Below the pieces are notes generated by a model. It made no database searches, was not told the origin of the DNA, and saw only the letters and a program-made list of their open reading frames with translations. Both the position numbers and the translations under genes were made by a program. From positions 62,001 to 113,489 of the forward strand of contig JBNGIO010006384.1 of assembly GCA_049999805.1 (NCBI GenBank): 51,489 nt of DNA, read 5' to 3'. This document shows, in pieces, positions 15,695 to 51,431 of this stretch. The first letter of the stretch is position 1. Each line of letters starts with the position of its first letter. Source of the stretch: Folioceros fuciformis (lineage: Eukaryota).

Positions 15695-15794
15695 NNNNNN
15701 NNNNNNNNNNNNNNNNNNNNNNNNNNNNNNNNNNNNNNNNNNNNNNNNNNNNNNNNNNNNNNNNNNNNNNNNNNNNNNNNNNNNNNNNNNNNNN
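15695..15794. other. Assembly gap (100 N)
   Basis: Run of N. Confidence 1.
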
Positions 15795-26469: not shown

Positions 26470-28352
26470 TCATGCCTGTACGTAGCACAGAGTCGCAGAA
26501 TCGTGAGCATCAGCTGACCTGTATGTGAGCCAAGGGTTGGAATTGGACGGATCATATCCTTTGGTGAAGGTGTTGCAGTGAGTAAGGGCAGAGATGGAGG
26601 ACCTGGACCAGCGACCGTGCTCGTCCATGCTAGAAACCACGAGGTGAGCAACCCGCAAAACCCTGCTCAGGTCCCTCAATTCATAGTCCGTCAAATCTAT
26701 GTGACGGGTGTGGACAAAGTACTGCTTGCAGCTTGCATTGACCATGCATTGCTCCGGGTCGAGGTCGCGAAAGCTGCGGTCCCCATCTTGAAGGGGGCCC
26801 TGAGAGCAGCGCAGCGCCATGTAAGGCACTCCGGTGTTGACGGCCTGTGTTTCGTACATCCGGTGAACGACCTTGTACGGGATGATCTCCACCACCAGGG
26901 ACTTGCGTCTACCGAAAGTGGTGGGATTCACCAAATTGGCTCCGTGGAGAGAGATGACTACGTCCGCTTCCTGCACAGCTGCGAACTGCTCCCGGAATGG
27001 CAGCGGCTTGAAATCCACGATGCGCAACCGGTAGCCTGGCAGGCTGGCCAGGAAGTCCCGAAAAGCGGCCTCGCTCTGGGTGGAGAATACCCTGCGCGTG
27101 TTCTTGCGGAAAACGTAGAGCAGCTTGAGCGCCGCAGGCTGGACAGTCGCAACGGCAGAATGAGGTTCTGGCCATCCCCCTGTAATCACCGGTCGCTCCT
27201 CCTCAAGCCCCAGTAGCTTCTTCTTGAGCCTGGCGCGGACGATATCGGCCACTGGAGGCCCGCCGGGCCAAGACGCACCCTGAAAGAGGAAATGTGACAA
27301 CGTCCCCGAGTGACAGCGAGTCAGGGAGAGGAAACCACACGGTATGAGCAGACAAGTCACCGCGACCAATCCTGACCAGTTCTCACCTTGAGCAAGGAGA
27401 AGAGGAGGAGGGAGCGGAAGCAGAGCGGGCGTTGGTCCGTGGCGTTCCAAAATGCGCGGTCCAGGTGAACAAAGCCCGCGGCGGCGGAGGCGGCTCCCAC
27501 CAGGTCGTTAGGGGTCAGAGTCGGAATAAAGGGGTGGTGGCCCGCCGAGCCTGAGCTGGAGCCCCCCAGCGCGGACGTCAGCATGTCGGCAAGGACGACG
27601 GCCATGAATCCATCCGCGCCGTGGAAACCGTGGATGGCGTCCACCTTCTTGTCCAGGAGGCGAGTGTGCATGCGGTGGCGGAGGAGGAAGAAGTGTTGCA
27701 CTGGCTGAGGCAGAGCAGGCAGGGTGGCGTTGTTGAGCAGGTGGAGCACGTTAGCCCTCGCCAGGAAGTGAGCCACATTGGTGGTGGCAGGCCCCAGGTG
27801 CAAGGCTGCGCTTGTGCCCGAGATCCACTGGGTCTCAGGCCTCCTGGACGCCCACGCGCCGACCGAGAAGGAGAAGTTGGTGAAGCCGGATTCCACTGGA
27901 ACCTGCGAGGCCAGGGCAGGGAACGCAGCAGAGCACGCCACTCCCCTCACAATGCTTCCGTCCAAGCTGCTTGCTGGCTCCACGCACTGCAGGGTGCGGC
28001 CGCTCGACACCATGTGGCTGCCGTTGTAGCACAGGTTGCGGAACTCGTACGCGTATTGCCGAGCCCCGAACTCATTGTGGGTCAAATAGATGCTGAGGCC
28101 GGTGCCATGGCCATCGTCGGAGTCAAGCTCGGCGTCGTCGGCGCCAGCGCTGTCAGCGGACGAGCATACCTGCATCACCCTGGAGCTGGAGAGCAAGTGC
28201 ACCCTGCACAGAGAGCCCGCGTACAAGAGCGACGCTGAAATGGACAAGATGAGGGCTACTGCTGTAGTCCACGCAAGTATCCTGTAGCGCCGCCACCATC
28301 TGGAGCGGGCTGCAAACCTGGTGCCTCTAAGACTGACCACTACTTCCGCCAT
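26470..28352 (-). CDS. Glycosyltransferase family 61-like type II membrane protein; exons 28352-27387 and 27279-26470
   Basis: N-terminal transmembrane helix after a basic stretch, NVAHF motif, then PFREQFAAVQEADVVISLHGANLVN...VVEIIP (GT61 'HGAGLTN'-like motif). One GT-AG intron joins the two ORFs in frame. Confidence 0.78.
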
Positions 28353-28645: not shown

Positions 28646-31600
28646 TCACCTTGGTGCATGTCTCTGCCCTGGGTTGGGCGGGGGCAAGTAATGGGCCAAG
28701 ACTTTCCTGAAACAAGGCTGGTCGAACACCCACTGCATGCTACCATATCCCAATACCCAGTTAAGCACGTTCCTGTACTTCGGCCGGATAATCCTGCCTT
28801 CTGGATCTGGTATGCCATGGCAATGCATGATGATGGCTGCGCCCAAGCTGAAGAGAAACACATCAATGCGTTTGGGAATGCTCAGATTGTGTCTTCGAGC
28901 AAGCTTGCTGTCGCTCACGGATATTGCGAAGCTCTCCAGGGCTCGTGATAGGCAGTACATGGATATTTCCATTCGCCTGCTCTTCTGCTCAAGAAGGAGA
29001 GCCAGACCCGTCGGGAACTGCCCACACAGCATCAATTCCGTCGTTGTGAGCATAGCACACAGTAAACGGCATCTCGCCTTACTTTCAAAAGCCATTGACT
29101 GAATTGAACTTACGGTGCCTGCTGCAACCAGAGCGGGGGTGCATGTTCCAGTGGCTCGAAACAGACCACACGTCCACAACCTGACATCCACAATTAGGCC
29201 TTACTCGATGCTACTAGCCAGCAACCGCTCGAAACAGCCAAACCAGCCCATGGAGGGTAGATTGTGATACGTACCAAGCCGACGCAGCATAAGTTGCAAG
29301 AAACAGACTGGACCTTGCGATGCCCAAAGATATTTTGCTCAGGAACATCAGCCTTGTTCCCCTGAAAGGTGCATTGCAGGAGACAAGCTATTTTCCTCAG
29401 TGTACCTTGACAGCAGAGTAGGCCAAAGGATAACAGCATATGACAATGCAAATGATGAGGTTCTCAACCACCCACAATAGTTAGTCGATGTACCCACGTT
29501 TACTCAACACAGACAAGGATGTAATTTACAGACACAGGCCCGGACGGATGGCGGTTTTGAAGGAGGTGAGGTCGTAGGAAAGGCGGTGTCTAGGAGTAGC
29601 AGGTTAAAAGGCCGGCCAAGAGGATACGGGACATCGAAGGACAAGGCAAAAGAGGACTCCGGAAAGGCTTCCATTACTACTGCGGACAACATGGAGGGTT
29701 CACATTTTTGGAGCAACCCTTGCGCATCCTCCCCACCAAGTTCTACTTGACCACTTAGCTTGACATACCGTCTGTGCCATTCTGTGTCCTATCCCAAAGA
29801 AGATCATCACGAAAAAAATGGTGCATGACGTGCGTCCTGCTTGGTTTTTATCCCACAGACATCTTGGGAATGCCTCCCACAAGTCAGCTTCACACATGGA
29901 CAACAATATGCGGATTTTGTTTACCTTCTGAACAGGTTTGTTCGGTGCACGAAAAGTGACCCTGCTACGTGCACTGGAATGTATACAGGAATGGCCCGTA
30001 TGTAGGCCCCCAGAAAGTAGGAGAGACAATGTGCTAAACAGCTTCGACTTCCATGAATGATCTGCCCAAAATCACACCACAAGTTCGTCATGTTGGGCCT
30101 CACATATGGTAAGTCAAACTGCAAATAAGCAAAAGAATTGATTGACCACACTGTTTTGCAGCGATCCCATTTAGGCATGGTTCCCAGTGGCGCATAGTTG
30201 GGACTTACAGTACAAGGGATCTCCATTTGTGGGTCGAAATCAATATATGAGCCTTCTAGCAAGTAGTGGTCACGAATCTCTGGAAGACTTGGCAATGGCC
30301 TCTGCTTCAAAGCAACCTCCCGAATTCCTTTGAGAATCGAGGGATGTTTATTTCCCAGTTTGTTGATAAATGACACGTATGATGAAGGTAGACTGCTTGG
30401 CTTCATTATCCATGACCATCTGAACGGGGAACCAGCGGCGATGAATAGGAAGTCAGGAGGCTGCAGAGGAAAACTAAAACGGTAGCACCACATACCGAGG
30501 ATGGTAGCGCAGGCACGACAGATTTGAGCAAGAGGACGTACAAAATCTGAGATGATGACAAACACATGAGAAAAATGTCCCCATGTCTCCATGTCAAGGG
30601 GCGACAAAGCCAACCCAGATTGCTGCTCCATATACCCGCTCGAGCTGCAAGAACCGCTGCCCTCACAAGGATATACAACGCCATGCTTGTGTTTTCTGCT
30701 CCGGTGAAAAGTAACGAAGGGCCAGCAAGCGCTCCAGCAACTAACCTCCTCCACTTTGCACTTCAAGACAAGAAATTTGGAAGACCATAAGCACAGGAAA
30801 GTGTCAAGGAACAGTAATGTGCAAAACGTTCATCAGGCAGGATTTTCAGGGAGGACCGGTACCTAGGGCCACCAAATGCGGCTGCCAAGATCTCGTCAAT
30901 TGTGCAGAAGCTGCCTGCATACGATCCGACAAACATGCCATATCGCAAAGATTTCTTCACACCTGCTATAACAGCATCGTCAATGGGTTTCAGTCCAGCA
31001 GTTGACCTGCATCAGAGAGTACCAACAATCACTTTATCAACTCAGAAGACAGTTATGAACAACTGCATTTCAGAACATGCTGGTGTCTGATTCAATCGAT
31101 AACATGGCAGTAAATGGACGTCACCTCTTGGATGCACGACGTCGCAGTCTGTCAAGAATAGAAATGAGTGAGATGGCTCCCTGAAGTCCTGCCCCAACCA
31201 GAAACCCCCTCAAGAGGGCAGAAATGCAGCGTTTGTAAGGTTTGCGACTCTCTGATCCCATGTAGGCATCTGGCTCCCCGGTGTAGTTCAGTAATCCTCC
31301 GATTCGTTGGAGTTTCTCCATGTGCAAGTGAGAGGCCGCAGAGCGGCCAGGGCCTTCCGGCCCTCCCTCAGAAATGGAACTTTCTTCCACGCTCCTTCCA
31401 TCATCGTCCACCTGTTCCTCACTCCCTCCGTCAGTAGAGCTTCGTGACCTGCCAGTACCTTCCGACCTTTTATCCAAAATGGGCCTTTCTTCACCACGAC
31501 TTCCACCATCGTCCAACCTTTCCTCATTCTCGCCTTGAGTAGAACTTTGTGTTCTGCCAGTGGCTTCCGACCTCTTATCCAAAATGGGGCTTTCTTCAAG

Positions 31601-33920
31601 ACTCCTTCCATCATCGCCTACTCGCTCCTCAACCTTTCCGTCAGTTGAACTTCGCAAGCTGCCAGTGTCTTCCGACCTTTCGTCAATACTGGGGCTTTCT
31701 TCAAGACCCCTTCCCTCATTCTCTCTGACAGAAGAATTTGATGTGATTAGGCTTTCTGCACCAGGCCTGTCGTCATCTTCCACCGTTCCGTCACTCCCTC
31801 TGACAGTGAAACTCGGTGCGCTCCTGGCTTCTGCAATGCTCGTTGAACTGGACGCATCTGCACCTACCGAAGTTTTCGGAGACGCCGAGAAGCTGAAATT
31901 GACACAAAACGAGGTGGTTGAAACCGAGTCCTCCCTCGGTTCACCCATGCCTTCGACAATCCCCAGTAGAGATCTCAACGATCCTGAAGTTTTGAGAGAG
32001 CTTTCAGCCTCCTCCCCCAAGTCTGCGGTTGCGTAGGACTCTGCTGCCCTACTTCCTGCACTTACTGCGAGACCGCAGGGCTGAGAGCCTCCGACGGGAG
32101 AATCTCCCCTCTGTCGTTTGCGTACTGCTTTTTTCTGGGAAGTATTGTCATCTGAAAGGGCGGATCCACCGATACTGTTGTCCGTCAAATTGGAGCCCTT
32201 GGCACCTACAACAAGGCTATCGGTGTCATTGTTGATGGCCGTGGGAACCTGAGCGTGGCTTCCACTCCGAGCTCCTTCACATTCCACAACTGGGACTGTA
32301 ACAGGTGGTTCGTCAACCTCCAAGCCGGGCGCGGAATCAATGCTCTCTGGCTTGCTCCCTTCTTGTGTGGCTTCGACTTCCTCACGGGACCATGAACGCC
32401 ATTCAGCCAAGTCTTTGGCATGGGAGAACAAGAGAGATTTATGAGTACGACTGGTGTCATTTTTTTTGAAGCGTCTTCGATCCACTCGCTGAATGACTGG
32501 GGACAACTCGCAAAATTGGGCCAGGGTACTCCCAACCTCCTCACCTTCTGCAGTTGTGTCGCTAACAGCTGGTTGCTCAGAATCCAAGACAGATGCCTCC
32601 TCTCTCTCAAGTTTCAACTCACGCACTTCGCCTTGCCCTTTCACCACACTTGAATCAGTTGAAGCGGTGAACCCCAAGCTTGATGATAGTGCGATCGTGG
32701 GAGAACCAGACCCTACATCTGCTGCCTCATTGCCACATTCTGAGATCTTTTCAGCTTCAGTAAGGGCGTGGCCATCTCCTCCTGAGCTAGTACCCTCGGA
32801 GGAGTTTGACTCGCTCCCTTCCACCTTCCGCCGCTTCCAATGCTTCGGCTGGAGGCTAATTGTCCGAAGCGGACTCATCGTTCCAGTGGTAGTCCCTTTG
32901 TATTCTGTCGGCTTCCTATCAACGGGCAGAGCGTCACTACTTTTGGCATCATCCTCGGCCCTCACATCAGAGTCCGGTACCAAGCCAGTTGTACTCTCGC
33001 TTGAACTTGGCAGGTTCAGTCGCAAGCTTTGTTTTGGCTCACTTGGCGCACTTGCGCGTTCTACGAGGAAACCCTCCAACACTTTTTCAGCTTTCGTGCC
33101 AGAGGAGCTACCATCTTCTTCCATTGACGCGGAGCTCACGCCAGATGGGAATTGACTCAGATCGTTCTTGAGCTGTTTAATCTTGATACTGTCAGAATTC
33201 AACAACATGTTATGCTCTACATGTGGCATCACCTCATTCAACATCTCAACAGCCATCTTCCCCATCTCCTGCAACTCTTCTGACTTGCAGCTGGAGCCAC
33301 CATCTTCGCTTGAAAGCCCGCGAGAACCAGTTTCGGAGACGGAGGATTCGGCACTGGGGCGGAGATTCTTAATTGGGGTATTGGTGCGGAGTTGCCGGCA
33401 TACATCTGGCTTTTCACGTGCGAGCGGCTTATTTTTTGTTTCAAGAAGCATCGTAGCCGGTGTCTTGTTCACATGAGCGCCAACGCTAGGTGCGGAACCA
33501 GATCCACTACCAAATTTGGATTCCTTCGAATCACAAGGAGGAACATCGTAAACGGGCAGTGCACTCGCTGACATGTTCCCATCTCCTGCACTGCGGGGAC
33601 CATCGGCGTCGCTGACAATCTCGCTCGAGCTACCAGTCTCCAATTCTGCTGCCTTGCTTTTAACCGGATCTCCATCTCCGACACTTGCATCAGTAATTGG
33701 CTGGCTGTCAGTGCCAATAACATGATATGCGGTCTCCCTGTATACATTGCGCAAAGAAGGCGTCTGTTCATTGTTGATGTCGGGGTCATCCATGACTCTA
33801 CATTTCCTCAGACACGACTGACCCACGGCAGCCAGGCCAGCGACGATTGGCAAAAGCATCGGATCCAAAATTGCATCAAAAATATCTTCGCCGGATATGT
33901 CGAGGCCAGACAACCTGATC
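28646..33920 (-). CDS. TMEM135-family membrane protein with a very long acidic/Ser-rich N-terminal extension; start codon uncertain
   Basis: C-terminal exons encode RGFLVGAGLQG, SLRYGMFVGSYAGSF, ALYILVRAAVLA, TWRHGDIFLMCLSSSQIL, GIARSSLFLATY, FPTGLALLLEQKSRRMEISMYCLSRALESF. The 2.8-kb exon 33920-31124 is in frame with the first TMEM135 helix. Confidence 0.82.
31345..31720 (-). repeat. 105-bp (35-aa) coding tandem repeat, about 3.6 copies
   Basis: CTTCCG(A/G)CC recurs at 31354, 31459, 31564 and 31669. The peptide unit is like DDGRSLEESPILDKRSEATGRTQSSTQGENEERLD. Confidence 0.9.
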
Positions 33921-34935: not shown

Positions 34936-36441
<1,506 letters not shown>

Positions 36442-37084
36442 CGCTGGTTGTGTCGTCTGTTCACCAACAATAACAATACTGTACTGGCTATACACGACAT
36501 CTACGCTGTCTCGGCATGTCCCTGCACATATACAACAGATCTACCTGCCTCTGCCTTCATTCAACGTTGAACTACAAAATTGAGGAGGTAGCAGGTCATC
36601 TGTGCCAACAAACCTGGTAACAACTGCACCAGATGGAATCCCAGTGCTGCTGAACCCCATCTGCTGCTGGTGTGACTGTAACTCATTGCAGGGCATCTCT
36701 TACTCAATTTTGTCACTTACATATGACAGTCATGACTTAAGAAATTCAAGGAAAAACTCCCTAAAACTACGTTTGTATAACTCCGGGATTAAAAGTCCAG
36801 GAGATTGTAGAGAATTGGTAAATTTCCTCTCCAGCAGCGGCACGTCACTGCTCACCCAATGCTCTTCCATCGACTTCTTTCGCCATCTTTATCTGTAAAG
36901 ATCCCGAATGATGCACTACTTGGAGGCCAAAGAACTCATCACTGGCTCTTGTCAACGTCAGATGATATCAAAGGAGAGCAGTACTTGGAGCCAAAAATTT
37001 TATCTCTGTCTCGTGTCAAGTCCGATGAAACCGAATGATGAACTGCTTGAGGGCCAATAGAGGATCGAGCACAGGAGGCACATC

Positions 37085-40000
37085 TTAAACGTCGTCTAGA
37101 CGCACCTCCAGAATCTTGCCGAGTAGATCAGCTGATGCTACTATCCCTGCGTCTTCCATATCAGCAACAATAGCAACAGCTGCGTCCCTCTCCCCGAGAG
37201 ATATACATAAAGTCACAGCCTCTTCGTACAGCTTACTGCAAACCACATCACACGTAAGCTTGTAAGAACGCAGTGCATATGGTGAGATGTTACAGAGTCC
37301 ACACACTCTGTAAGGCTGCAGAACCCTTTACCTTCCATACACATATTTCAGCTTGTGTGACTGTTGCAGTAAGGACACGATAGCTTCTGGGCAGGGTGTT
37401 TTGATGGCAGCACGAACCAACATCGCACAATCGCTTACTGTCGGTACGCCCCCAAGGTCAAGCACCTACACCAATGATGATAGAGATGAGGGGTAGGTGA
37501 TGGTGACCCAGAACCTCCAGTCGAGAGAACATGTCAAAGGAAGTCAACAATACCACCGTACCTTCTGCAAGATCTGCATTCCTAACTGGACCTCACGCTC
37601 CTGCGTCCAACGCTCTGGTGCAGAGTCCAGCAAATGCCGCTCCCATGTCCAGCCCCACACATCAGCTATGGTGTATAGTTCAGATACATCAAAGACCCTA
37701 TCAGCTTTCAGTTTGGCAAACTTCTCCTCCAAGGTTAAGTCAAGCCAATCCCCATCTCTTCGACCAAGCTCCCGCTTCAGCTGGTGTACAGGAGAAACAC
37801 TATTAGATACGCCGTTGAAACTACTAAACCCTGGGTGAACGAACAACTGAAATCACGCGACAGAAGGGCACGCAAACCCCTTGAAATGCATGCACCATAG
37901 TACACATACCTTCTCCTCTGGCAAATCAGCAGTGTTTTTAAATAGCTGAACAGCCAGCATCTCGGGAGCATCATCAGGTTCATCTTCTTCACCACCATCT
38001 TCTACCAAATCGACATCCTCCACCTCCTCTTCGATTTCCTCATCTTCCTCATCTTCTGCCTCGTCGTTTTCCTCATCTTCTTGAATTGCGGCAACATCAA
38101 CATCCACATCCCGTTGCTCTGTACTGTGGGTACCATCAGAAGAACCCAAGATGGAAAATTTCTTTCGCCAATATTCCGTATTTTCGTCCTTCAGACTCAG
38201 CTGAGACATGAACTTGTCAAGTTCTTCATCAACCTGCAAGCATAAGTTGAATTTAGAGCAAACAAAAAGAAAATACAAACCACCACTCATACAAGCTCAG
38301 ACAGAGATGACATTCATTCTGAAGTCTGCTAAGTATGAGGTAAGTTTACCTCCACATGTTCATACTCTGCTGGTGGCACCCACAATGGTCTACCCCTGGC
38401 ACGATTTATTCTCCTCGCTTTCTGCACTCTTTGATAAAGAACTGGCCTTGTTCCATCTGTGGGCAAATCTTGTGCCTCTAACTCCTGCTTTAACTCAGAA
38501 ACCAGCATTTTGCTTGCCGCTTTCGGCTTTCGTGATTGAGCAAAAGATTCACCGAATGTCTCCTTCTTCAGCTTGTCCAGAACTCTGATGAGGTCATCTT
38601 CTGTAGCTCCAGGTCCTAAGGCAGCGGCACCTTCTAGTTTCAGCTTCCTCAGAAGCTTCATGTTATACTTCTTCCGCATGTGAGAGCAGTGTTGTCTGAA
38701 GGACACCTCCATCGGTTTTGAATACGCAAAACCCTCAGAGTCAGGGTCGACAAGGCGACCTTGCTGATTAGGTGAGGACCTCCAACGATTTCGGGTGCCA
38801 GTCAGCCCACCTTCTGCTATATACCTGCACATTGGCACGAATTTCAGGATGTCACGTAGCCAAATAAGTACTTGCAGGAAAGCTTGACGTATGAACCTGT
38901 TCAAGGCGCCAATCACAAAAATCTGACCTAGCAACATAATCCACTTCGTAGCCCAGATCCGGCTCTTGCTGGAGAGGTTCAATCCAAGAACTCACTAGCG
39001 TACGACCCTTCCTGTTCACAAACATAGCCCTTGGAGGAAGGGACTGATTATCCCTTTCCATAGCTTCTAATGCCTGCAGAATCTCGACCGCCCTCCCTGA
39101 TTAGAAAAACAGCCAAACTTCTGAGCACATTAAAATCGTCGATAATCTAAGAGGTGCTACAAAATGACTCCAGCAACAAGTACACTCATAAAACGCACCC
39201 TCCAGACATATGGCCCTCAAATACAGAGACAAACAGTCATCGTTTTTGCCGTCATTATAGAGAGCCGCCGTGCCTCCAGGGTGCTGACATAGTGCTCGGA
39301 AGTGCCGGACAGCCTCATTGACCTGATTCCACTTGGTGAAGCACTCAACCAGCAGTCTGGATTTGGCCAAAGAGAGTTTCATGACAATCTCACACACATG
39401 GACCCTGACAAGACTGAATCTGATCCATCAAAGATCACTAAATATCATACGTGTAGGTCCTCAAATTAGGCATCACCCGCGTGTGGTCTTCCACCATCAC
39501 TCCAAGCACATCTATAACTTCCTTGCACCTGCCAGAACCCGTTACAGAAATCAGGGGCGATGCAGATAATTAATTCTTGGCTTGAAAGCATGAAAGCCAA
39601 TATCTGATAGATTCCTCAGCAGAACATAGCTATCGACATCTTCAGAGGATACCAACCTGTCACCATACTTGTGGCGAGTATGTGCTTGTATCAGCCAGTT
39701 GTAAGATTCTGTATCTGGCTTCATTCCCTCTAATCACGGTCAAAACAGGTGATAGTGAGCAGCAGCCACATGTTGGTTCTCAAAACCTTGTGAAAAAGAT
39801 TGAATGACTTCAGGCCCTCCCACTTTAGATAAGAAACTGTAAGTAACGTGCAACGTGTGCCCGAGAGCGTGAGTACCGTGCCCATACTGCATGTTCTCAA
39901 ACGTCATTGCAGCAATGTCGGGGACGTCTGCATTTGCCTTTAACCAAACGCAATGTCAGCATTTTATGGCTCACAGCCAACTTCAAAGTTTCTCGTGCCC

Positions 40001-41311
40001 AATCTACTGCTCAGCCTAGGATAACTCGGAGAGCCACCAGATGCAGTGTGAGTTGCAAAACGAAAGTGCTGTACCTGTGCCATGAGAAGACAATTGAAGT
40101 GAAACGTGGTAGCTCGCCTTCCCCGAAACTCCATTAGCTTCATTATGTTAACGGCATTGCCGTGTTGCCCGATCCTACAGTTCTCATGAACTAGAATGTC
40201 GTCCAGGTGGGTTGTGGACTTAAGGCCACCAGTCGCTCCTTTGAAAAAAATGTTGTTGGCTTCCTCCAACTGACCAGCATTGAACAGCTCCTCTGGCAAG
40301 AACATAACAGCACATTCCTGGAAATCATGAGCCCAAAATTGACAAAACCGAGCCACAAACTCACGCACGTAGAGAGAAAAGGAGAACAAAAACCAGCATA
40401 ACAGTGGCTCCCATGTCAGCAGACTGAGCTGACCTGCGCACCAGATCCGAAGTGAAGTCGGGAATCGAAGCCTCACCGACTAGAGCAAGCCAGGCTAATC
40501 GAGGATCCTGATCCATTTTCTCCATCGCTGCCAGAATCTCTTCGCCCCTCTTGGCGTGGCCCTTGGAACCGAACAAGCGCGCCAAGGTCGTGAAAGTCTC
40601 CGGCAACGGCCTTTCCCCGGACCCGAACTCCCTCCGCAGAGCTTGGAGCTGCAATGCAATTTTGCCAGCCAGGAGAAGAGAACAGAATGAGCGGATGGTG
40701 ACCAAAAAGGCGCACAGGCACACACAATAGGAATGTCATGACGCTAACACTGGCTAGCACCTCCTCCTCCCCAGAAACAAATGCATGTGCCAAATGGACG
40801 ATTCTGCCAAAATACCGCTCCATCACTGTCCCCGTTCAGAGCGTAAGCCACCACCAGGCCGTGATACGCCCGCGGCCCAGGGTGTCTGCTGNNNNNNNNN
40901 NNNNNNNNNNNNNNNNNNNNNNNNNNNNNNNNNNNNNNNNNNNNNNNNNNNNNNNNNNNNNNNNNNNNNNNNNNNNNNNNNNNNNNNNNNNTCCCCACTC
41001 CGGGCCCTCTCCATGATGAACTCCAGAAAGCTGTACCTCAGCTCCACTTCTTCCAGCAATCCAACCTCCGCGCCGACGGAAAATTCCAGCCGCGCCCCGC
41101 CCCTGCTACGCCCATTCTCCAACCCTTGAGCCGGCCTGGACCACGGTTCCGCCAGCACCGCTCTGACCGTCGCCGCCCGTCGCCCTGCCTGCCGCGAAGG
41201 TCTCGACCTTGTCGAGACTGGAACGCCGACGAATCTTGAGACGCTCGAGACGCAGGGCCAGCCCGGCGGCTCATAGCCGCCCCACCCGGCAGCGGCGACG
41301 TACGACGCCAT
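37085..41311 (-). CDS. pTAC3: Plastid transcriptionally active chromosome 3 (PPR + SAP domain, PEP-associated), multi-exon, interrupted by an N gap
   Basis: PGPRAYHGLVVAY, RPLPETF..L.RLFGSKG, RTLVSSWIEPLQQE, YIAEGGLTGTRNRW, SAP domain KAASKMLVSELKQELEAQDLPTDGTRPVLYQRVQKAR, ELYTIADVWGWTWE. The N-terminus looks like a transit peptide. Confidence 0.93.
40892..40991. other. Assembly gap (100 N) within the pTAC3 coding region
   Basis: Run of N. Confidence 1.
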
Positions 41312-41780
41312 AGCCGCAATCCTTCACCCCTGTTTACTTGTTTAGCCTCTTGCTCTCGAGCCGCACGAAGAAGAAGAAAGAAGTACCAAAAAGCAGACTG
41401 TTAAGTGCGAACAAACCAATGACTATCCAGTTCTTTTCCCACTTCCTTTGACATCCCAGGCGCATGCTGGCACAAGCTCTCGTGAACATGGAGCAGCCAT
41501 GTTTCCGCTTACTCTCCGATCTACCGTGGGTGGGTACAAGGTGGACCGTGAATCTTACCCACATTCTACAACAACCTCAAACCCACGACATTACTTTGGT
41601 CTTGACATGACGAGCATCTTCTCTGCCTCATCGAAATGGGCCAGCACGCCCAAGAAAATCGATCGTGCAGTTGTAATGCTCTACAGGAGGTTCGTCTGTC
41701 TCAGTTTGATCGAGAACGGCTCACACCTGGCGAGAAAACAACAATTCTCTAGAGCACTGGGTTGTTGTTGTTGTTCATTT

Positions 41781-44321
41781 TCACGGTCGGCCTTTACAAC
41801 TGCACCTACCAGCTGAGAATCGATGCACACGGTACCCATCCCTTACAACAATGTCTCTGTTTTCAAGCCTTGACATGATCTCGGTAGAACTGTGACAATC
41901 ACTGCACATGCGCAGATTCTTTGTTACCACCAGAGGGGTGCCCCTGGGAGTGTTAAGGAGACCAAACGCAAGGGCTAGCTTCTCAGCATGCCCACAAAGC
42001 GCGTCTTCTTTTTCCTTCTCAGACAGTGGCCTCAACACCAACTTTGTGTGTGGCACATGTCCCCCTTCCAGCTTCAGCCGGGCATTAGTGCTCTCTACCT
42101 TCAGCGCAATGTCATCTGTCCTACCTCCTACCACAAATGTATGTACCTGCTCCTTCACCTCAATGCCCGCCACTGCAGGTTTCTTGGTAGCTCCTGCTAC
42201 CAGTCTCTGTGCTTCAATCCTCTCTACATCGGTCCACCTACCTGCATCTGCATAGGCATTGGCCATGAGAACATATGCAGGCGCCTGCTTGGGGTCCAGT
42301 GTCACAAGCCTCTCAAAACATCGCGTGGCCCTCTCTAAATCTCTGTGACTTTTGGAGGCAGTCAGCAAAGAAGTCCACCCAACAACATTTCTGTGGCCCT
42401 CGCATGATAACAGCATCTTTTCTGCCTCATCTAAGTGGCCTGCACGTCCTAGAAGATCAATCATGCAGTTATAATGCTCAGTAGACGGTTTGATGCCATA
42501 CTGATCAGCCATGGATTCGAAGTGCTTGCGACCCTCATGGACCAGTCCTTCATGACTGCATGCCGCTAGCAGGCAAGTAAAAGTGGTGTCATCAGGCCGA
42601 ACACCGGCAGCCAACATCTCCTCAAAACAGGCCAATGCCAAGTGACCTTCATCACAAGCACCATACCCAGATATCAAGGACGTCCATGTCACTACATCCT
42701 TTGCGGCCAAGCTGTCGAAAACAGCGCGTGCATCTTTGAGTTCGCCACATTTTGCGTACATGTCCACCAAGCACGTCCCTATGAGTGGGTTATCTTGAAG
42801 TCCTTCCCCGCCAATCTGAAAGTGCAGCTGTCTGCCCTTCTGCAAGGCACCAGAGGTTGCACAGGCCTTCACAAGGAAGGCTAGAGTAACGTAGTCAGCC
42901 ACAACTAGGCCCTCCTGCTCCATTTTCCCATACAGAGCAAGGGCCTCGTGACCAAGTCCTTGCTGCGTATACCCAGCAATTAGGGCTGTCCATGTCACCA
43001 CATCCTTGGTAGCCAAGCTGTCGAAAACCCTGCGTGCGTCTTCCAGTTCGCCACACTTTGCATACATATCAACCAGGCAGTTGCCGACTAGTCTACTACC
43101 CAGCAGTCCTCTCTCCACAATCTGTGAGTGGAACTGCCTGCCCTTCTGCAACGCACCAGTGCCTGCACAGGCCTGCAGAAGGCAAGCAAAAGTAACATGG
43201 TCCGCGACAATCTGGCCCTCCTGCTCCATTTTCCCATACAAAAGAAGCGCCTGTTGGCCGAGCCCGCGCTGTGTGTACCCAGCGATGAGAGCGTTCCATG
43301 TCACCACATTCTTCGTGGGCAAGCTGTCAAAAATCCGGCGTGCAGCTTCCAGTTCTCCACATCTTGCATGCCCAGCTACAAGGGCAGTCCATGTCACCAC
43401 ATTTTTCGTGCCCAAGCTGTCAAAAACCCTGCGTGCATCTTCCAGTTCGCCACATTTTGCATACATGTCCACCAAGCAGGTGCCAACAAACAAGTCCAGA
43501 GCAATGCCATTCTGCAGCACCTCACTGTGCAGTTTCCTGCCAGACTCCAAATCAGCAGCAAATCCACACGCCTGAAGGGCAGCCGCAAACACATGAGCAT
43601 CCGCCTTCACACCCGACCTTCGCATCTCCTGGTACAGCTGTATGGCCTCCTTTGGTTTTCCATGTTTAGAGTACGCGGATATTATGGAAGACCACATGAA
43701 GGCATCTGGTCTGCCTACCCTGGTGAACACATCCATGGCCTCCTGTATCCTACCTCCACACGCATACATGCGCAAGAGATGGTTCCCAAGATAAGCATTG
43801 GACTCGTACCCAAGTTTGACAGTCAGATCATGAACTCGCTGCCCCACAACCAAATCCCTCCTAGCTGCACACATTTTGATGACACTGTAAATCAGAGACA
43901 GAGGAATCGGACCGTCAGTCTGCGCCAGAGACTCCAGGGCTCCCACAGCCTCCGTAAGCATCCCGTGCTGACACAAGTTCCTCACGGTGACAGCCGTTAC
44001 CACGCCCGTTTCGGGTCGGAAGTCAGGCCACCGGAAGCTCTTCTCATCTCGCCTGTTGTCCCACCACATAACTGGCTCCAAAAAAACTCGCTCCTGCTCT
44101 TGCTCCTGGCCCCGACCATCACTGGAAAATCCTTCCCCGCCCACAAATTTTCTGGGAAGGGGAAGTGCTGATTTCCTTACGCTGCTGCACCCAGAGGCTT
44201 GATTGATTCCCAGCATTTGACTCCCAGATATGACGAATTGATCTGGCGCTCGTCGTGGAATCCCTGTGCTTTCACCCATTTGTTGTGTCCACAGCGGATC
44301 CAACTGCCATATCGTGGCCAT
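41781..44321 (-). CDS. PLS-class PPR protein with E1/E2 and a variant deaminase-like domain (DYW:KP, 'GRP' type), intronless, 846 aa; putative organellar RNA-editing factor
   Basis: About 15-16 P/L/S motifs, P2-L2-S2, E1, E2, then KKPAVAGIEV (in place of the PG box), CGHAEKLA, KNLRMCSDCH and terminal CSCKGRP*. Confidence 0.95.
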   Translation of the reverse strand: MATIWQLDPLWTQQMGESTGIPRRAPDQFVISGSQMLGINQASGCSSVRKSALPLPRKFVGGEGFSSDGRGQEQEQERVFLEPVMWWDNRRDEKSFRWPDFRPETGVVTAVTVRNLCQHGMLTEAVGALESLAQTDGPIPLSLIYSVIKMCAARRDLVVGQRVHDLTVKLGYESNAYLGNHLLRMYACGGRIQEAMDVFTRVGRPDAFMWSSIISAYSKHGKPKEAIQLYQEMRRSGVKADAHVFAAALQACGFAADLESGRKLHSEVLQNGIALDLFVGTCLVDMYAKCGELEDARRVFDSLGTKNVVTWTALVAGHARCGELEAARRIFDSLPTKNVVTWNALIAGYTQRGLGQQALLLYGKMEQEGQIVADHVTFACLLQACAGTGALQKGRQFHSQIVERGLLGSRLVGNCLVDMYAKCGELEDARRVFDSLATKDVVTWTALIAGYTQQGLGHEALALYGKMEQEGLVVADYVTLAFLVKACATSGALQKGRQLHFQIGGEGLQDNPLIGTCLVDMYAKCGELKDARAVFDSLAAKDVVTWTSLISGYGACDEGHLALACFEEMLAAGVRPDDTTFTCLLAACSHEGLVHEGRKHFESMADQYGIKPSTEHYNCMIDLLGRAGHLDEAEKMLLSCEGHRNVVGWTSLLTASKSHRDLERATRCFERLVTLDPKQAPAYVLMANAYADAGRWTDVERIEAQRLVAGATKKPAVAGIEVKEQVHTFVVGGRTDDIALKVESTNARLKLEGGHVPHTKLVLRPLSEKEKEDALCGHAEKLALAFGLLNTPRGTPLVVTKNLRMCSDCHSSTEIMSRLENRDIVVRDGYRVHRFSAGRCSCKGRP

Positions 44322-44872
44322 GTGACAGACAACGCAACGCCCTCAGGACACTTAGCAGATTATTTCCGCCATGCCATTCACTGTCAGCCAGAAAGATGCT
44401 CTTGGTGCAATCGTTCCAAGTTCCATTCTGCCTTGATTCTCTGTGGGATAGAAGAGAATCTAGGTCGAATCATAGCTTGAGTCACTCTCGTAGCAGTACA
44501 TGCTGTTCCTCCTCATTTTTCGGTAGATGACATTTTCCATCACTTTGTCATGACCCCACGAAGTTTAATAAAAGCGTGCTTGCTGCGAGGCGATATGCGG
44601 GAACCTTGACTGCCTTACGTCCTGCGCCGCCAGCCGAAAATGTTCGGGAACGGGGGCCACATAGGATAAAACCGTAATATAGGAGTGAGAATGGGGAACC
44701 GGACCGCCAACCAGGGAGGGGTAGGGACACGGACACGGCTCCCGGGTAGGGTAGCGTCCCGGGGAGACTAGCCGTTGGGTGGGGAGTCCGGGACCCGACC
44801 CTCCCGCCTTCGCCGTGTGAAGTTGAGCCTTGGGAGCTCGCTTGCGTGCGTGCCACAGCGAGGCCGCCAGCG

Positions 44873-47800
44873 ATGGCGCCCCTGAAGTCTTGGGTGCGAG
44901 ACAGTCTTGCGAGTTTGGATCCGCGGGACCTGTGCAGCGAAGCCAAGGTTGAGAAATGCCGCGCAATCCGCGACTTACGAAGCTGCGGCAGGATTGTGCA
45001 GCATGTGCTGCTGTCGTGCGGGCATGCCTGCCTGTGCGCGGAATGCAGTCAGAGGTGCGACGTATGCCCCATCTGCAGAGTGCCGATTTCCAAGACAGGA
45101 GCTGCGATGCGGCTGCGGCTGTACGACGACTTTAGGCAGGCGGGCCTGCTGTCGCAGCCCGCGGGTGAGGACTGCAGGGACGGGGAGGAGTGGACTGCGG
45201 ACGTGCAGCGCTTGCATTCGCTTTTCGACGTGGCGTTGGAGTATAACATGGCGTCCATGGTTTGCCATTGTATCCTCTGCTTGCCGCTTCACTTGTGACG
45301 TAGCTCCTCGATTTCGTCACGAATGGAGGTTTTGTGTTTTTTCTCTCTTGCTCTCTGTGCTGTCGCTCTGTCTCTGTCGAGGGCTACTTAACTTCACAAT
45401 TCAGACGTGCTGGATGTTTGCCTGGACGAGACCGCCGTTTCTAGCGATGCGGTTGTCGCTATGCTGCTGGACGGAGCTGTTGTGAAGGACTGGTGCAAGA
45501 AGGCGTACCAGACTCTCAGCAACAGCTTGGGAGAATTGTGTATCCTGCAAGCCATTGGCGTGCGTTCGTTGCCCGGGTCGGGGTGAATACCGCCTGGTTT
45601 CGTGGTTTTAGGTCATCAGGCATGCAGTGAAAATGTGTCATCTAGTGTCGGCTATTGGGAGTGTACTGCTTAAATTTGCAGAGACGGATTAGGGCAGTGG
45701 ATGCTAATTGATTTTCTGTTGATTCCTTAATATTGTCCTCTCCCAGACAGCTTGAGCTCGAAGCAGATCTGCAGTAAAGCCGATGTTTTGGACAAGTCGT
45801 GTATGAAACTGGAAGGCCTAGGTCACGTACTGGAAGCTCTGGAGGCTCCTCTACTTGACTCAAACTCGCCAACACTGTATGAGGTTCACCAACTATTGGA
45901 AGGTGTCAGGAAAACTCTTCAGGTGAACGTTTGTAGAGTGAGCTGCCAGCCTAGTGGAGGAATACATCTGATTGCGGTGAACTCATAGTGTCTTGGCATG
46001 TTGCAGCATCTGGAGGTGATGACTTGGTGCACGAGGCACCGCTTTCTTGAAAGCTTTCCTGCTCGTTTTGCAAACTCGGCTCAGTGGAAACTTGCAGTCA
46101 AGGAACGAAAGGCCGCTGCGCAGGAAAGGGCATGGCCTGATTACGTTGCAGGCACGGGGCAGCTGGGACCGAAACCAGTTGCAACACTTTTCATAGAGGA
46201 TGCTATATCAAACCTTGGATTTGGTGAGCAAGAGGATGATGATGGTGGAAGGGATGTTGAAATGAACTGGTTACGCTCACCAGGCCAGGCTTCATCATCC
46301 CCTGTCAGGCACCGAAGGGATGGCTTAGGGCAACAACTTTCTGCAAACTCTATGGGCATGTCGTATCCACCTGAAACCATTCGAACGGCAGTGGATGCCC
46401 TTTTTCTGGAGGGCAGCTCTGAGTTGATTCTTGCAAAGCGAGCTATTGTATCCTGGCACTGTTGTCATTTTCTACCTGAAATCTGTTGCCTTTGGGGCTG
46501 TTCGTTCCTTGTTTTTGTGTGTGTCCTGCGAACCCTTAGAACCTCGTGCTGCTCATCCTTGATTTCTGTTTCAGTTCTTGTATTACTTATTTGACCGTTA
46601 CTGGACACTTCATGATCGAAGCTGGCGAAGTATTATTGACGATTACGTGGGGACCTTTTCAATTCCTAGACATTTTGTTCTGGAGTCCCTCGTCTTCTTC
46701 CTTCTCGATGATATTTCTGAAGAAGCCCTTGAGGTACCTAAACTCTTGGTTGCACTCTGCCCTGATGGTCACGAAGGCCTAGGCTAGCCTTGTGTTGGAT
46801 AATGTCTTGGTTTTTGTCTTGGGCTGTCGAGCACTAGGGTTAGGGTTGCACTGGAGGTCATGGTTCTGATCATACCCATACCACTTTGACTGTAGGAAGC
46901 GGGCGAGCTATTGAAGGAAATTGTTGGACCAACAACTCATCCGAAGGTTCCACGTGTTTTGCTTGAGCGGCAAAGACCAAAGGCAGCTTTGATGATCTTG
47001 CGTTGCAATGGCCGGGGGATTCAACTTGGGCGTAAACAGGGAGAATCGGATCAAACAGGCACTATGGCACTAGCAGAAGCTGTCACCACTGTGAGAGTAT
47101 TGATTCAGAGTGAGCTCATTTCAGACAGCTTCCTTTTCCAAAGGGCACACGGTTCAAAGCTGAAGGCAGACGAGCAATTCAAAAGGACAAGTAAAAGGCA
47201 GGATGCTAACAATTGGGAAGCGGATCGAAAATGGGGTGAAGAGATGGAAGTGCTGGTAGGGGAGATTTGCTGGTTATGTATCCTTAGGAGCAGGGTGGAT
47301 CAGATGTTGGAGCTGCCATGGAACGCAGATGAAGAGAAAGCATTGCGGAAGTGTTTATTGGAACGAACCACACAGGATCCTTCGTCTGCTGCAGGGAGTC
47401 TTCTGGCGGTGTACTACATTCGGGTTAGTCGTGAACCGTTTGATGTAGGATTACTTACTGGCAGCCGTTTAGAACCCAGTTCATTATATTGACCTGTTTG
47501 TGCACTAATTCTTGTAGAGATGTCGCTTCGTGGAGGCATACTCAGTGCACCGGAGATTATGCGACTTGGAGCATCAATATATGTCCCGCTCACTGGACGA
47601 GGAAAGGATAGCGCGCATACAGAAAGCATCAGAGAGACGAGGGCTGCTCACGGTAATTCCACGGGCCAGGATGCCCTTAGTTGTCTCATTGCCCTGGCTG
47701 ATGAAGTACTCACTTGCCCGTCCTTCCAGGAGAAAAGCATAGAGCTGCTTCCGGCATTGCAACGGCAGCGTCTGCTAAGCGGGGAGATCCCAGACCCTTT

Positions 47801-48221
47801 GGCTGCCTCACCGTCAGCCGCCAACCCAGCCGTCTCGTCGGGAGAAGATACTGACATCGAAGAAGCAAGCACAGCCCCTGCTCCTTTGCCACTCCTGGTG
47901 AAAAGCGGCAATTCGTCTCGCGTCCCTGGGCCCTCTCCCTCTCCCCTGCTGGCAACCCGGAGTAGGTTTAGCCAGGGCGGCCTTAAATTTCCCGGTGATG
48001 GCGCGCCACCACCCGCCTCCACCGGCTACAGGTGGCCTTCCATCCTCCATGTCCAGTCACCTCTCCTCGGAAACCTGACACCGCAGCCACCGGGCAACGG
48101 GCTAAACGTTAAGCAGAACGGGCACGCCGGCGTCGGCGATGGACCTAGCCCCAGCCCAGTGCTCGGTCCCAGGTTGAGATACGAATCCAATTGGGACTCC
48201 ACCATCGGGATATACAGCTAG
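44873..48221 (+). CDS. HOS1: E3 ubiquitin ligase HOS1 (RING + ELYS domain); at least 8 exons, 3' end uncertain
   Basis: LCSEAKVEKCRAIRDLRSCGR..CGHACLCAECSQRCDVCPICR, CHYVLDVCLDE, QHLEVMTWCTRHRFLE, ATLFIEDAI, AKRAIFLYYLFDR, MLELPWNADEEK. Confidence 0.93.
45270..45404 (+). other. U12-type GT-AG intron (HOS1 intron 1)
   Basis: Donor GTATCCTC and branch-point-like TACTTAAC about 12 nt before the AG. Splicing gives CH-Y-VLDVC. Confidence 0.75.
45540..45746 (+). other. U12-type GT-AG intron (HOS1 intron 2)
   Basis: Donor GTATCCTG and branch point TTCCTTAAT at 45723-45731. Splicing gives GEL-Y-SL. Confidence 0.82.
46448..46574 (+). other. U12-type GT-AG intron (HOS1 intron 4)
   Basis: Donor GTATCCTG and branch point TCCTTGAT at 46556-46563. 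Splicing gives AKRAI|FLYYLFDR. Confidence 0.82.
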
Positions 48222-48688
48222 CACATGTGCACCTCCTCTATGTACCCCTAGATTACTGTAGCTATTCCTGGCCTGGTAAGGAGTGTAGGTACCTAGGTGC
48301 TCAGAAAGCTGAATACGTACCACTCCAAAGAGCCGCTGCCCGGCGGTGCGAGAGTCGAGACGAGAAAAATTTTGGTTCCGTGAATCTTTTTGATCTTGAC
48401 CAACACCCTGGTAACATGTCAGGTTCAGAGTCCAAGGTCCACAACCTGACGACGCCGCGCGCGCATTTTGCTGCAACCGAGGTCGTCGATCAACATTGCG
48501 AGCATGGAGTCGCGAGCACCATCTTGGTGCATCATGCTTTCTTGTCCGAGAGGTTAACTTGTGTCCTGAGCCCTGGAGATGGTGAAGTGGTGGCTGAAGT
48601 TCCAGCTGGTCTCTGAGACATGCTGAAGCGGAATTGGACTGTGTACACCGGACGGAAGCCTATGATCGTGGCTGATGAAACATTTGTG

Positions 48689-51431
48689 ATGAAGCGGCGG
48701 CGACCAAGGCTCTGGCTCTGGCTCTGCCGCGACGCTGGCAATCGAGATGTCAGAAATGGCGCGTGGGTCGGCCAGCTCCAGCAGCAGCAGCTGCTGCTTG
48801 TGCTGCTGCTGGTGTGGTGCACGTTGCAAGCTCGAGCCAGCCATGCGCAAAATGTAAACCTCACGGCCATCTCCTTCTCCTCGGCCCTGCTCACCTGCTT
48901 GGGATCTTGCCAGTTCGCCAACGACAACTCCCACGTCAACCTGACGCAAATCGGCGGCACCGGCGGCAACGGCGCTCTCCTGGTGGGCAGGGTCATGTTC
49001 AAGAATCCGGTGCGATTCTACGACGGCAGCGGGGTATCAGCATCCTTCCAGACCTCCTTCCAGTTCCGCCTCGACAGACCCAACAGCAACAGAGGTGGTA
49101 ATAGCAGCCTCGGAGACGGGTTCGCCTTCGTCATCGCACCGAGGTTGGACATCCCGACCGGTTCCGAAGGCAGCGCGCTGGGTCTGTTCGCGTCCACCAA
49201 CACGACCGAGGCCAAGCGCGACAACAGGATGGTGGTGGCAGTGGAGGTGGACACCTTCCAGAACTCCAGACCTGACTGGAACGAATCGCCTGTGCCGCAC
49301 GTGGGCCTGGACGTGGGAAGCCCGGAGTCCAGGAACACCTCCACCCAGCTCACGGAGATCGCTGTGGGGCAGACCGTGGGATTGTGGATCCGCTACAGCG
49401 CCCAGGAGCAGGAGCTGGAAGTCCGCATTTCGTCGTCCAAGACAGTATCCGGAAATGGTAGCGGGTTCCAGCTCCCGCCCTCCCGGCAGGTGCTGCTCTG
49501 CTCGGGCTTCGACCTGGCGGGGACGGTGCAGCAGGACTCGTTCGTGGGATTCTCGGCCGCCACCGGAGGCAGTATGGAAATCAACCAGATCCTGTCTTGG
49601 GAATTCGCCACCACGGGCTTCCCGGACCCGGAGCCGGAGCTGGAGCTGGGAGGAGGACCGAGTCTAGGCCCCTTGAGCAGGAGCTCTGGCGGATCTGGAG
49701 GAGCCGGAATCGGACTTGTGGTTGTCGCGCTATCGCTCCTGGTTGCCGCGGCCATCGCTGTGGCCATCGCTTGCTCCTGCTACCTCAGCTGGAGGGTGCA
49801 CAAGAGAAAAGATGGCCAGCCTCGGCCCGACGCGGACTCCGGATCGGAACGGCAGGCCACGGTGCTTGGCAATGAAATCAGCTTCCGGGGTCGCATCCGC
49901 ACGCCCAGCCTGCTGCGCTTGCCGGAAGCCGGGTTCGGGCCCCGCCACGTCCCCTACACAGAACTCTGCGATGCGACCCAGGGGTTCAAGAGCCAGAGCC
50001 TGCTCGGGGAAGGAGGCTTCGGGGGAGTGTATGTGGGAACCATGAAGGATGGCACCCAGGTGGCTGTGAAGAAGGTGAGGCATAAGTCGTTGGAGCGGGT
50101 GAAGGAGTTCCTGGCTGAGGTACGTGATCGCCTCTTCTTGCAAGCTTCCTTTGTCAATTGTCGGACCATCCTTTTTCTCCACGATGGCAGGATAGTCTAC
50201 GGTTGCAGAGAAATGGAAATGTACGGCTCGGCTTGATTCAATTTGTTGTCCACCTTGGGCATTTTGTGAAGACTGCCAGGACCTGCACTGGGATGGGAAT
50301 GGAAATGCAAAATGGGAATGGGAGGCACTTCATTTGTTTGGTCACGTCGCCCATTTATGTGGCTCTGCAGGTGACCATTATTGGCCAGCTGAGCCACAAG
50401 AACCTGGTGCAGCTCAAGGGATGGTGCCACGAGCACGGGGACCTCCTCCTGGTGTATGAGTACATGCCCAACGGCAGCCTGGACAACCACCTATACCCCA
50501 CCGCCGACACTCCTGGGGATTTGCTCACCTGGGCTCAGAGGCTTAGCATCGTGAGGGGGCTTGCTGACGCCCTGTTGTACCTTCATCGGGGCTGGAAGCA
50601 GCCGGTGATCCACAGGGATGTAAAGCCCAGCAACATCATGCTGGATGCCAACTTTGCTGTCCGGCTTGGGGATTTCGGGCTGGCGGTTGCTGTGGAGAAG
50701 GACAAGCTGGTCCAGACTGTCAGCAGAGCTGCAGGTAATCCTATTCTGATATCCTGATTGGCTTCCTGTTTGCTCGAGACAGATACTTCGCAGTTTGTAA
50801 GGAAAGGCTACCTGGCGGCATCCTGGCATCGTTCCTCTGAGGGATGCCATTGGAATGATCATGCAAGTATACTTTCTTGGGTGCAGGAACTGTTGGGTAC
50901 TTCGCGCCCGAGACGCAGGAGACCGGCAAGGTGGGGACAGAGACGGATGTCTTTAGCTTCGGGGTGGTAGCTCTGGAGCTGGTGTGTGGGAAGAGGGCCC
51001 TGGACTGGAGCCGACCGAAGAACGAACGGCATCTGGACAGCTGGGTGTGGAGCCTGTACGCGAGTGGCCGGCTGCTGGAGGCTGTGGACCCTCGGCTGGC
51101 GGGGGATTACGATGAGGAGGAGGTTACGAAACTGCTCCAGTTGGGGCTCATGTGTTCTCTCCCGGACCCCACCTCCAGACCCACCATGACCCTCGTCACC
51201 CTCTTTCTGGCAGGAGCCGTCGACATCCCTGATCTTCCTAAATCCATCCCCTCCCTCTACGCCCCCGTCACCTCACCCGCTGACATCCTGTCCTTTGCAG
51301 CGGTCATGCGAGGTCTCAACAACACTACCTGTACTATAAAATCCAGTGCCCCCGTGGCTTCTTCCTCAGACATGCCAGAGCACTTCAGCACATTGTCGAA
51401 CATCATACAGGGCCCCCGGACATCTTTTTGA
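48689..51431 (+). CDS. L-type (legume) lectin receptor-like kinase; exons 48689 (or 48620)-50119, 50371-50734, 50887-51431
   Basis: Signal peptide, lectin domain (ASFQTSFQF, GDGFAFVIAP, VAVEVDTFQN, FVGFSAATG, ILSWEF), a TM helix and an RD kinase (GEGGFGGVY, VAVKK, HRDVKPSN, DFG, GYFAPE). Confidence 0.94.

Follow-up and report, generated by a model that had tools for sequence, protein, structure and literature searches.

In the literature that we found, U-to-C editing is the only base conversion in plant organelles that lacks a native enzyme assigned to a native site, and the locus described here raises the question of whether it encodes such an enzyme. It lies in a stretch of 51,489 nucleotides (nt) of Folioceros fuciformis (assembly GCA_049999805.1, contig JBNGIO010006384.1, positions 62,001 to 113,489 of the forward strand), which was analysed as a whole and is called the window in the following; all coordinates are window positions. 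The gene in question is on the minus strand and encodes a PPR protein with a deaminase-like domain of the DYW:KP class at its C-terminus. Based on all lines of evidence, we read it, with a probability of roughly 0.72, as a nuclear gene whose product is a site-specific editing factor for organellar RNA, belonging to the GRP subgroup of the DYW:KP class. That it codes for a GRP-type DYW:KP PPR protein is close to certain, and its product is probably a working native U-to-C editor, judged by analogy with synthetic consensus proteins of the same type.

The gene consists of a single uninterrupted open reading frame (ORF) of 846 codons, running from ATG to TGA with no intron (ORF list and translation; Table 1). 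Because the ORF lister picks the first start past the upstream stop, this frame is the longest possible from start to stop; in-frame Met residues are found at positions 1, 15, 36 and 85 of the N-terminal part. The original prediction had called the gene intact, and this is what we found: the frame stays open over 2538 nt, 18/18 motifs have their canonical length, and every catalytic residue is present. Searches against Pfam gave 245 bits for PPR, 233 bits for PPR_2 and 171 bits for PPR_1 (108-245 bits across the PPR families), and the E_motif family was matched at residues 659-721 with 54.8 bits against a cut-off of 27.3 (E = 1.2e-14).

The architecture of the protein was parsed by cutting the sequence according to the canonical lengths of the motifs, with the beginning of the C-terminal domain as anchor. 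In order, it comprises 106 amino acids (aa) at the N-terminus, 16 P, L or S repeats, the E1 and E2 motifs and a 133-aa deaminase domain, with residues 107-712 filled without a gap by 18 motifs (the 16 repeats plus E1 and E2). The array starts with a degenerate P repeat and continues as L, S, P, L, S, an additional S (SS), P, L, S, P, L, S, P2, L2 and S2, the corresponding lengths being 35, 34, 31, 35, 35, 31, 31, 36, 35, 31, 36, 35, 31, 35, 36 and 32 residues. Residues 36-70 of the repeat-free N-terminal part are basic and rich in hydroxyl residues, a composition that would fit an organelle presequence.

The C-terminal domain carries the features on which the class assignment depends. It matches the Pfam family DYW_deaminase (PF14432) over residues 754-844 with 112.4 bits against a cut-off of 24 (E = 9.2e-33) and, using HMMER, solved DYW domains with E values from 2.5e-41 to 2.6e-27, so that its features are not due to chance. 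The original prediction concerned positions 41781-42190, where the C-terminal domain (41784-42185) is flanked by the stop codon (41781-41783) and by 5 nt of E2. This prediction listed five deviations from or agreements with canonical DYW domains, all of which were recovered at defined residues. First, the replacement of the PG box by a KP motif is seen in the alignment to solved PG-type domains, where K714-P715-A-V-A stands opposite the PG box of 9kfx; in a 51-row alignment of KP and PG DYW domains together, the “G” position of this box is A in 35 rows and G in 16. Second, the shortened segment after FVVG appears as a gap: four residues are absent from the query where 9kfx reads “SHPQ” and OTP86 (7o4e) reads “HPES”. 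As the paper on the OTP86 structure places the gating insertion of the deaminase fold at H837 to G891, and the His in the missing stretch is H837, the shortening means that the gating insertion lacks its first residues. The resulting domain of 133 aa has the length described for most DYW:KP domains, which lack xHP, versus 136 aa for PG domains (PMC9478123).

Third, the zinc motif reads H778-A779-E780-K781, as had been noted from the sequence. The middle residue of HxE is A in 36 rows of the 51-row alignment, S in 13 and C in two, and Ala in this position has been described as specific for DYW:KP (PMC9478123). Fourth, the CxxCH motif is intact (C806-x-x-C809-H810) and its columns are invariant (51/51). 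Fifth, the protein does end in GRP (G844-R845-P846), directly followed by TGA. By alignment to OTP86 and its published ligand list, H778, C806 and C809 correspond to the ligands of the first zinc site (Zn1) and E780 to the catalytic Glu, while H810, H833, C840 and C842 correspond to the ligands of the second site (Zn2; H924, H947, C954 and C956 of OTP86). All of these residues are invariant in the 51 rows, together with K801, two Phe and one Ala. K801 is therefore necessary for, but not discriminating between, the classes, since PG domains have the same Lys.

The AlphaFold2 model of residues 706-846, for which the 51-row alignment served as input, has a mean predicted local distance difference test (pLDDT) score of 90.4, and the domain is predicted to adopt a deaminase fold with a second, structural zinc site. 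Its best fold match in the PDB is 9kfx_A, a synthetic PPR-DYW protein bound to RNA (E = 2.8e-16, TMq 0.88, root-mean-square deviation 1.5 Å over 139 columns), followed by the DYW domains of OTP86 and DYW1 (TMq 0.71-0.88 over these solved domains). Among the PDB sequence and fold matches, which represent three distinct sequences, no solved structure of the KP type was found, all being PG-type or DYW1.

In order to place the domain within the DYW family, a tree was built. Out of 210 proteins, an HxE...CxxC domain with full tail was present in 146, and 114 rows remained after removing those with ≥90% identity to a row already kept. The tree was obtained by a quick IQ-TREE search under LG+G4 on 144 columns, with support given as SH-aLRT (Shimodaira-Hasegawa-like approximate likelihood-ratio test) values only. 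The query falls into a clade of exactly the five GRP-ending rows (support 98), which is nested in a 21-row clade rich in GRP and DRH endings (support 95), and this in turn in a 40-row clade (support 93) of 39 HAE rows and one HVE row. The canonical domains form a separate clade (support 97) of 55 rows, 53 of them HSE and nearly all ending in W. Thus, the query belongs to the HAE/KP clade and not to the PG-type domains. Profile scores point in the same direction: the query obtained 209.4 bits on a KP profile and 149.3 bits on a PG profile, i.e., 60 bits in favour of KP. The KP profile was built from 34 HAE rows, leaving out the GRP rows, the query and two stray rows (P0036 and P0177), and the PG profile from 51 HSE rows ending in W. 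All GRP rows (5/5), which are absent from both profiles, favour KP by 60-70 bits, and the 58 HSE rows show a median preference of -68 bits, most of them being training rows. The assignment to the DYW:KP subclass made from the sequence alone is thereby supported.

The subgroup can be determined independently of the tree. According to PMC9478123, hornwort DYW:KP proteins comprise two subgroups, DRH and GRP, named for their last three residues; the terminal Asp, which is conserved elsewhere, forms a hydrogen bond with a conserved Lys, and in GRP proteins this Lys is replaced by Glu. In our alignment the Lys/Asp pair is present in 43/51 rows, and both residues are missing in 5/5 GRP rows, where the two positions are Glu/Gly (three rows), Thr/Gly (one) or Gln/Gly (one). 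The query has E814 and G844, and this coupled loss of Lys and Asp therefore places it in the GRP subgroup. The original prediction had associated the domain with hornworts, ferns and some lycophytes alike; the GRP ending and the loss of the Lys mark the hornwort GRP subgroup and not ferns or lycophytes, and they suggest that the source is a hornwort.

What the protein might do is suggested by designed proteins of its class. In E. coli, U-to-C editing by KP2 and KP3, two designs based on the GRP consensus, reached about 26% and 22%; they were also active in HEK293T cells, and in the report on these designs C-to-U editing went undetected in both systems. Editing was lost when HAE was mutated to HAA or CxxC to AxxA (PMC9478123). 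Lys88 of the designer KP proteins, the counterpart of K801, is essential for U-to-C editing, and its replacement abolishes this activity and unmasks C-to-U editing (PMC11845758 / PMC11332814). Hence, the statement that synthetic proteins of this subclass show U-to-C activity stands, but the chemistry is better resolved than the accompanying statement had it, as published work points to the conserved active-site Lys as the nucleophile in crosslinking and as the donor of nitrogen (PMC11845758, PMC11332814). The published model leaves room for native enzymes that turn over only once, or that are restored by some amine carrier (PMC11845758 / PMC11332814).

Transferred to the protein encoded here, these data lead to the following proposal, in which we infer import, editing direction and target. 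The protein would be imported into plastids or mitochondria, where its 16 repeats would bind single-stranded RNA, one nucleotide per repeat, via their fifth and last residues, with S2 facing nucleotide -4, counted from the edited base. The E1 and E2 motifs would bridge the array to the zinc enzyme domain, which would act at position 0. The base at this position would be a uridine converted to cytidine; this direction follows from the class and is carried over from synthetic proteins, namely the consensus GRP-type domains. At the site formed by Zn1 and E780, K801 would attack C4 of the uracil, giving a Schiff-base intermediate between RNA and protein that would be resolved to cytidine.

The putative target can be specified using the PPR code in the version given by a review of 2025, in which Asn at the fifth position stands for a pyrimidine and Ser or Thr for a purine, Asp at the last position for U or G and Asn for C or A; editing is placed there 4 nt to the 3' side of the base that S2 aligns with. 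For the canonical P and S repeats, the code predicts the element A U G n A A U n U G n G G n C (5'-3', positions -18 to -4), followed by three unspecified nucleotides and the edited U. By position, this corresponds to U at -17, G at -16, A at -14 and -13, U at -12, U at -10, G at -9, G at -7 and -6 and C at -4. The A at -18 is read from an L repeat (Ser/Asn) and is less certain, and the base at -4 is C or possibly U.

Comparing the protein to known systems, the closest agreement is with KP2, KP3 and the hornwort GRP proteins, which by description share the KP motif, HAE, a 133-aa domain without xHP and the GRP end (PMC9478123). The hornwort GRP proteins also share, by description, Glu in place of the Lys that partners Asp and the P2-L2-S2-E1-E2 order upstream (PMC9478123). 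Unlike the two designs, the query is a native protein with its own array of 16 repeats, and its Gly829 is unusual. With the DRH-type hornwort DYW:KP proteins, the basis of KP1, it shares the 21-row clade (95), the KP motif, HAE and the deletion, whereas the terminal Asp and the Lys that partners it are both retained in DRH rows. KP1 itself was inactive in E. coli, as the designs that edited were KP2, KP3 and KP6 (3/7; PMC9478123). The fern and lycophyte DYW:KP proteins (KP4 to KP7; e.g., P0033 and P0158 of Adiantum) have in common with the query HAE, the KP motif, the fold class and the 40-row HAE clade, but they form a separate clade of six rows (97), have E or D before HAE where the query has G, and end differently. 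Their representative KP6 was bidirectional in human cells (PMC9478123). Canonical DYW:PG domains (OTP86 7o4e/7o4f, DYW1 7w86 and 9kfx) show the same fold with gating insertion, both zinc sites, the catalytic Glu and the active-site Lys, but differ in the PG box, HSE, xHP, the DYW terminus and C-to-U catalysis.

Among native proteins, the best relative of those scored is P0003, whose identity to the query is 59% at full length and 69% in the C-terminal 207 aa. Among short proteins, the best fragment covers 27% of the query with 68% identity. The nearest named relatives are ferns, with 51-54% identity over the C-terminal 207 residues. The four GRP relatives P0003, P0005, P0007 and P0017 were considered as orthologues with the same target and ruled out, as they have different pairs of specificity residues at most repeats; they are rather paralogue-like, with other predicted targets.

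Expression of the locus was addressed by comparing four coded sequencing runs, none of them on record as RNA, with window positions 36000-50000. One run, X1, contains a contig of 5143 nt that matches the neighbouring minus-strand gene with 0 differences and skips its introns; joints in X1 were recorded at six CT..AC introns (37463/37560, 39095/39198, 39526/39655, 39936/40074, 40292/40477 and 40648/40816). Since X1 contigs skip these six introns with 0 differences, X1 contains spliced RNA of the source organism. A second X1 contig of 680 nt, also with 0 differences, spans 43718-44397 and thus covers the first 604 nt of the coding sequence (CDS) and 76 nt upstream of the ATG; overall, X1 contains a fraction of 0.43 of the words sampled from 41500-44700. 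Paralogue contigs at 90-95% likeness inflate the depth over the repeat array, and this depth was left out. These observations give a hint that the PPR gene is transcribed.

The gene also bears marks of rearrangement. Within the array, one P-L-S triplet has been duplicated in tandem at the DNA level, 42663-42962 and 42969-43268 being 76% identical (unit of 300 nt, period of 306 nt). In the same part, within 42663-43487 (-), an S-type unit of 120 nt occurs in four copies with 73-85% DNA identity, and the additional “SS” repeat (residues 308-338) is one of these copies. Contigs of related organisms (runs X2, X6 and X8) have joints on 42661-43496 that skip 281-455 nt or step back 385 nt; these are probably paralogues or assembly chimeras over near-identical repeats, and not variants of the PPR gene.

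About 100 nt 3' of the stop codon and outside the CDS, a frameshifted relic of an S2 repeat was found at 41582-41681 (-). It shares 77% identity over 102 nt with the S2 of the gene itself (42379-42479; blastn E = 4e-16, tblastn and three-frame translation), and no E1 or later motif could be recognised past it. As this relic lies behind the stop codon, the cassette of S2, E1, E2 and DYW:KP domain is bracketed by two S2 copies. A duplication or exchange at S2 may have left this relic behind, or it may be all that persists of a neighbouring paralogue that has decayed. A more far-reaching idea, which we consider improbable, is that the S2 pair is the footprint of a cassette-type duplication or exchange at S2 that spreads the catalytic module between repeat arrays; if true, such cassette moves would be one route by which new reverse editors arise. 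On this idea, the short array of 16 repeats would also make the gene a tractable first native enzyme-site pair for U-to-C editing. By eye, no poly(A) tract as a sign of a retrocopy was seen in the 3' flank.

Several points weigh against reading the gene as a site-specific editor of the GRP subgroup working from U to C. All rows of the tree were drawn from hits to the query, and the groups were labelled by motif (HxE and last triplet), with the label columns inside the tree alignment. Three protein searches, in which the 1764 to 8000 candidates sharing most words were scored, revealed no orthologue, although one may exist beyond these candidates, and the nearest GRP relatives, the four named above, differ at most specificity positions. 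As the gene is intronless, the 680-nt contig of X1 is indistinguishable from DNA carry-over. The evidence for U-to-C activity comes from synthetic consensus proteins, which stall at the crosslinked intermediate in bacteria (PMC11845758 / PMC11332814), and the DYW:KP class is not strictly one-directional, as the fern-type KP6 also performs C-to-U editing. Finally, residue 829 (41835-41837) is Gly, where 36/51 rows have Ala and the query is the sole row with Gly. In the alignment this residue falls at the position of D116 of KP6, one of three residues altered in the variant KP6u with enhanced U-to-C activity (PMC11845758 / PMC11332814).

These points feed into three alternative explanations. The one that survives best, though we regard it as unlikely, is that the gene is an intact but idle member of its family, i.e., a young or redundant duplicate without a required editing site, still there because it has not decayed. 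The size of the hornwort PPR family would fit this view, with over 1400 proteins reported (in a passage crediting Gutmann et al. 2020) and expansion by dispersed duplication, as would the missing orthologue among the scored candidates and the locus itself, which has been rearranged, given the triplet duplication inside the array and the decayed S2 relic behind the stop. However, an idle copy sits poorly with a frame open over its full length, canonical motifs throughout and complete catalytic residues, and with the exact match of a contig from a run that contains spliced RNA. Divergence of the internal repeats to 73-85% DNA identity also indicates that the array is not very recent.

Slightly less probable still is an editing factor that works in vivo from C to U, or in both directions. 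The behaviour of KP6 in human cells and the switch of KP proteins to C-to-U editing upon replacement of Lys88 make this conceivable, the zinc ligands, Glu and Lys are common to PG-type domains (51/51 rows), and the unique Gly829 lies at a position changed in KP6u. By contrast, it is the GRP-based designs KP2 and KP3 for which C-to-U editing went undetected, and the query, which has Lys801 and Ala779, groups with the GRP rows at support 98. There are PLS-class proteins that function without catalysis of their own, but organellar RNA binding for stabilisation, processing or translation without base change is very improbable here, as the query sequence offers no pointer to it, all ligands of both zinc sites, the Glu and the Lys are conserved, and the domain is modelled confidently as a DYW deaminase fold. 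For a native U-to-C editor of the GRP type, which we continue to prefer, we infer the direction from the class.

The novelty of the gene is limited. The DYW:KP class, its GRP subgroup, the link to lineages with U-to-C editing and the activity of synthetic proteins are all already in print (PMC9478123 and reviews), so that the gene adds one member to a catalogued family that, as the original prediction stated, is known. Its discovery value is modest, as it is one of many such genes. At the same time, full-text literature searches revealed no native enzyme-site pair for U-to-C editing among the matches listed, and the reviews consulted report none either; for the activity, the matches listed and a review of December 2025 name only synthetic consensus proteins. 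Because it is intact, of the GRP type and has a short array with a predictable cis-element, the gene is a usable candidate for asking whether native enzymes bring the reaction to completion and whether they turn over. It is a reasonable candidate for such work, not distinguished among many paralogues.

Table 1. Features of the PPR gene and of other genes in the window, with positions, strand and basis of assignment
Feature	Position	Strand	Basis
CDS, 846-aa PLS-E1-E2-DYW:KP PPR protein	41781..44321	-	ATG 44321-44319, TGA 41783-41781; Pfam PPR, PPR_1, PPR_2, PPR_3, E_motif, DYW_deaminase
Repeat-free N-terminal 106 aa, possible organelle presequence	44004..44321	-	Motif parse and composition
Putative RNA-binding array, aa 107-645	42387..44003	-	Parse by motif lengths
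E1 (aa 646-679, 34 aa) and E2 (aa 680-712, 33 aa)	42186..42386	-	E_motif and parse
DYW:KP deaminase-like domain, GRP subgroup, aa 713-846	41784..42185	-	133 aa from K714; pLDDT 90.4
K714-P715-A-V, KP motif replacing PG box	42171..42182	-	Alignment to solved PG-type domains
H778 (Zn1 ligand), A779, E780 (catalytic Glu), K781	41979..41990	-	Aligned to OTP86 H892/E894
K801, counterpart of designer KP Lys88 and OTP86 K915	41919..41921	-	Invariant in 51/51 rows
C806-x-x-C809 (Zn1 ligands) and H810 (Zn2 ligand)	41892..41906	-	Invariant in 51/51 rows; OTP86 ligand list
E814, where 45/51 rows have Lys	41880..41882	-	Substitution typical of GRP subgroup
C-terminal element: H833, C840, C842 (Zn2 ligands) and final G844-R845-P846	41784..41825	-	H/C/C invariant in 51/51 rows
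U-box and ARM-repeat (PUB-type) protein	9486-10769	-	Ordinary plant nuclear gene
Glycosyltransferase 61 (GT61) fragment	26470-27450	-	Ordinary plant nuclear gene
TIP49/RuvBL AAA ATPase	34969-36441	+	552.7 bits
Multi-exon SAP-domain neighbour	36000-41311	-	Pfam PF02037 in ORF 38332-38982; six introns confirmed by X1
Legume-lectin-domain protein	48620-50236	+	Ordinary plant nuclear gene

The PPR gene is located between the multi-exon SAP-domain gene (-), which is the neighbour whose introns are skipped in X1, and another expressed gene at about 44.7-48.4 kb. The start codon of the SAP-domain gene lies near 41311, about 470 nt downstream of the stop codon of the PPR gene. Assembly gaps of exactly 100 N are present at 15695-15794 and 40892-40991, the latter falling within the region of the first exon or intron of the SAP-domain gene. 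Elsewhere in the window, 31121-33913 (-) contains an open frame of 930 aa with a very high content of Ser, Glu, Gly and Asp; it has a hydrophobic tail, and an acidic unit is repeated close to its C-terminal end.

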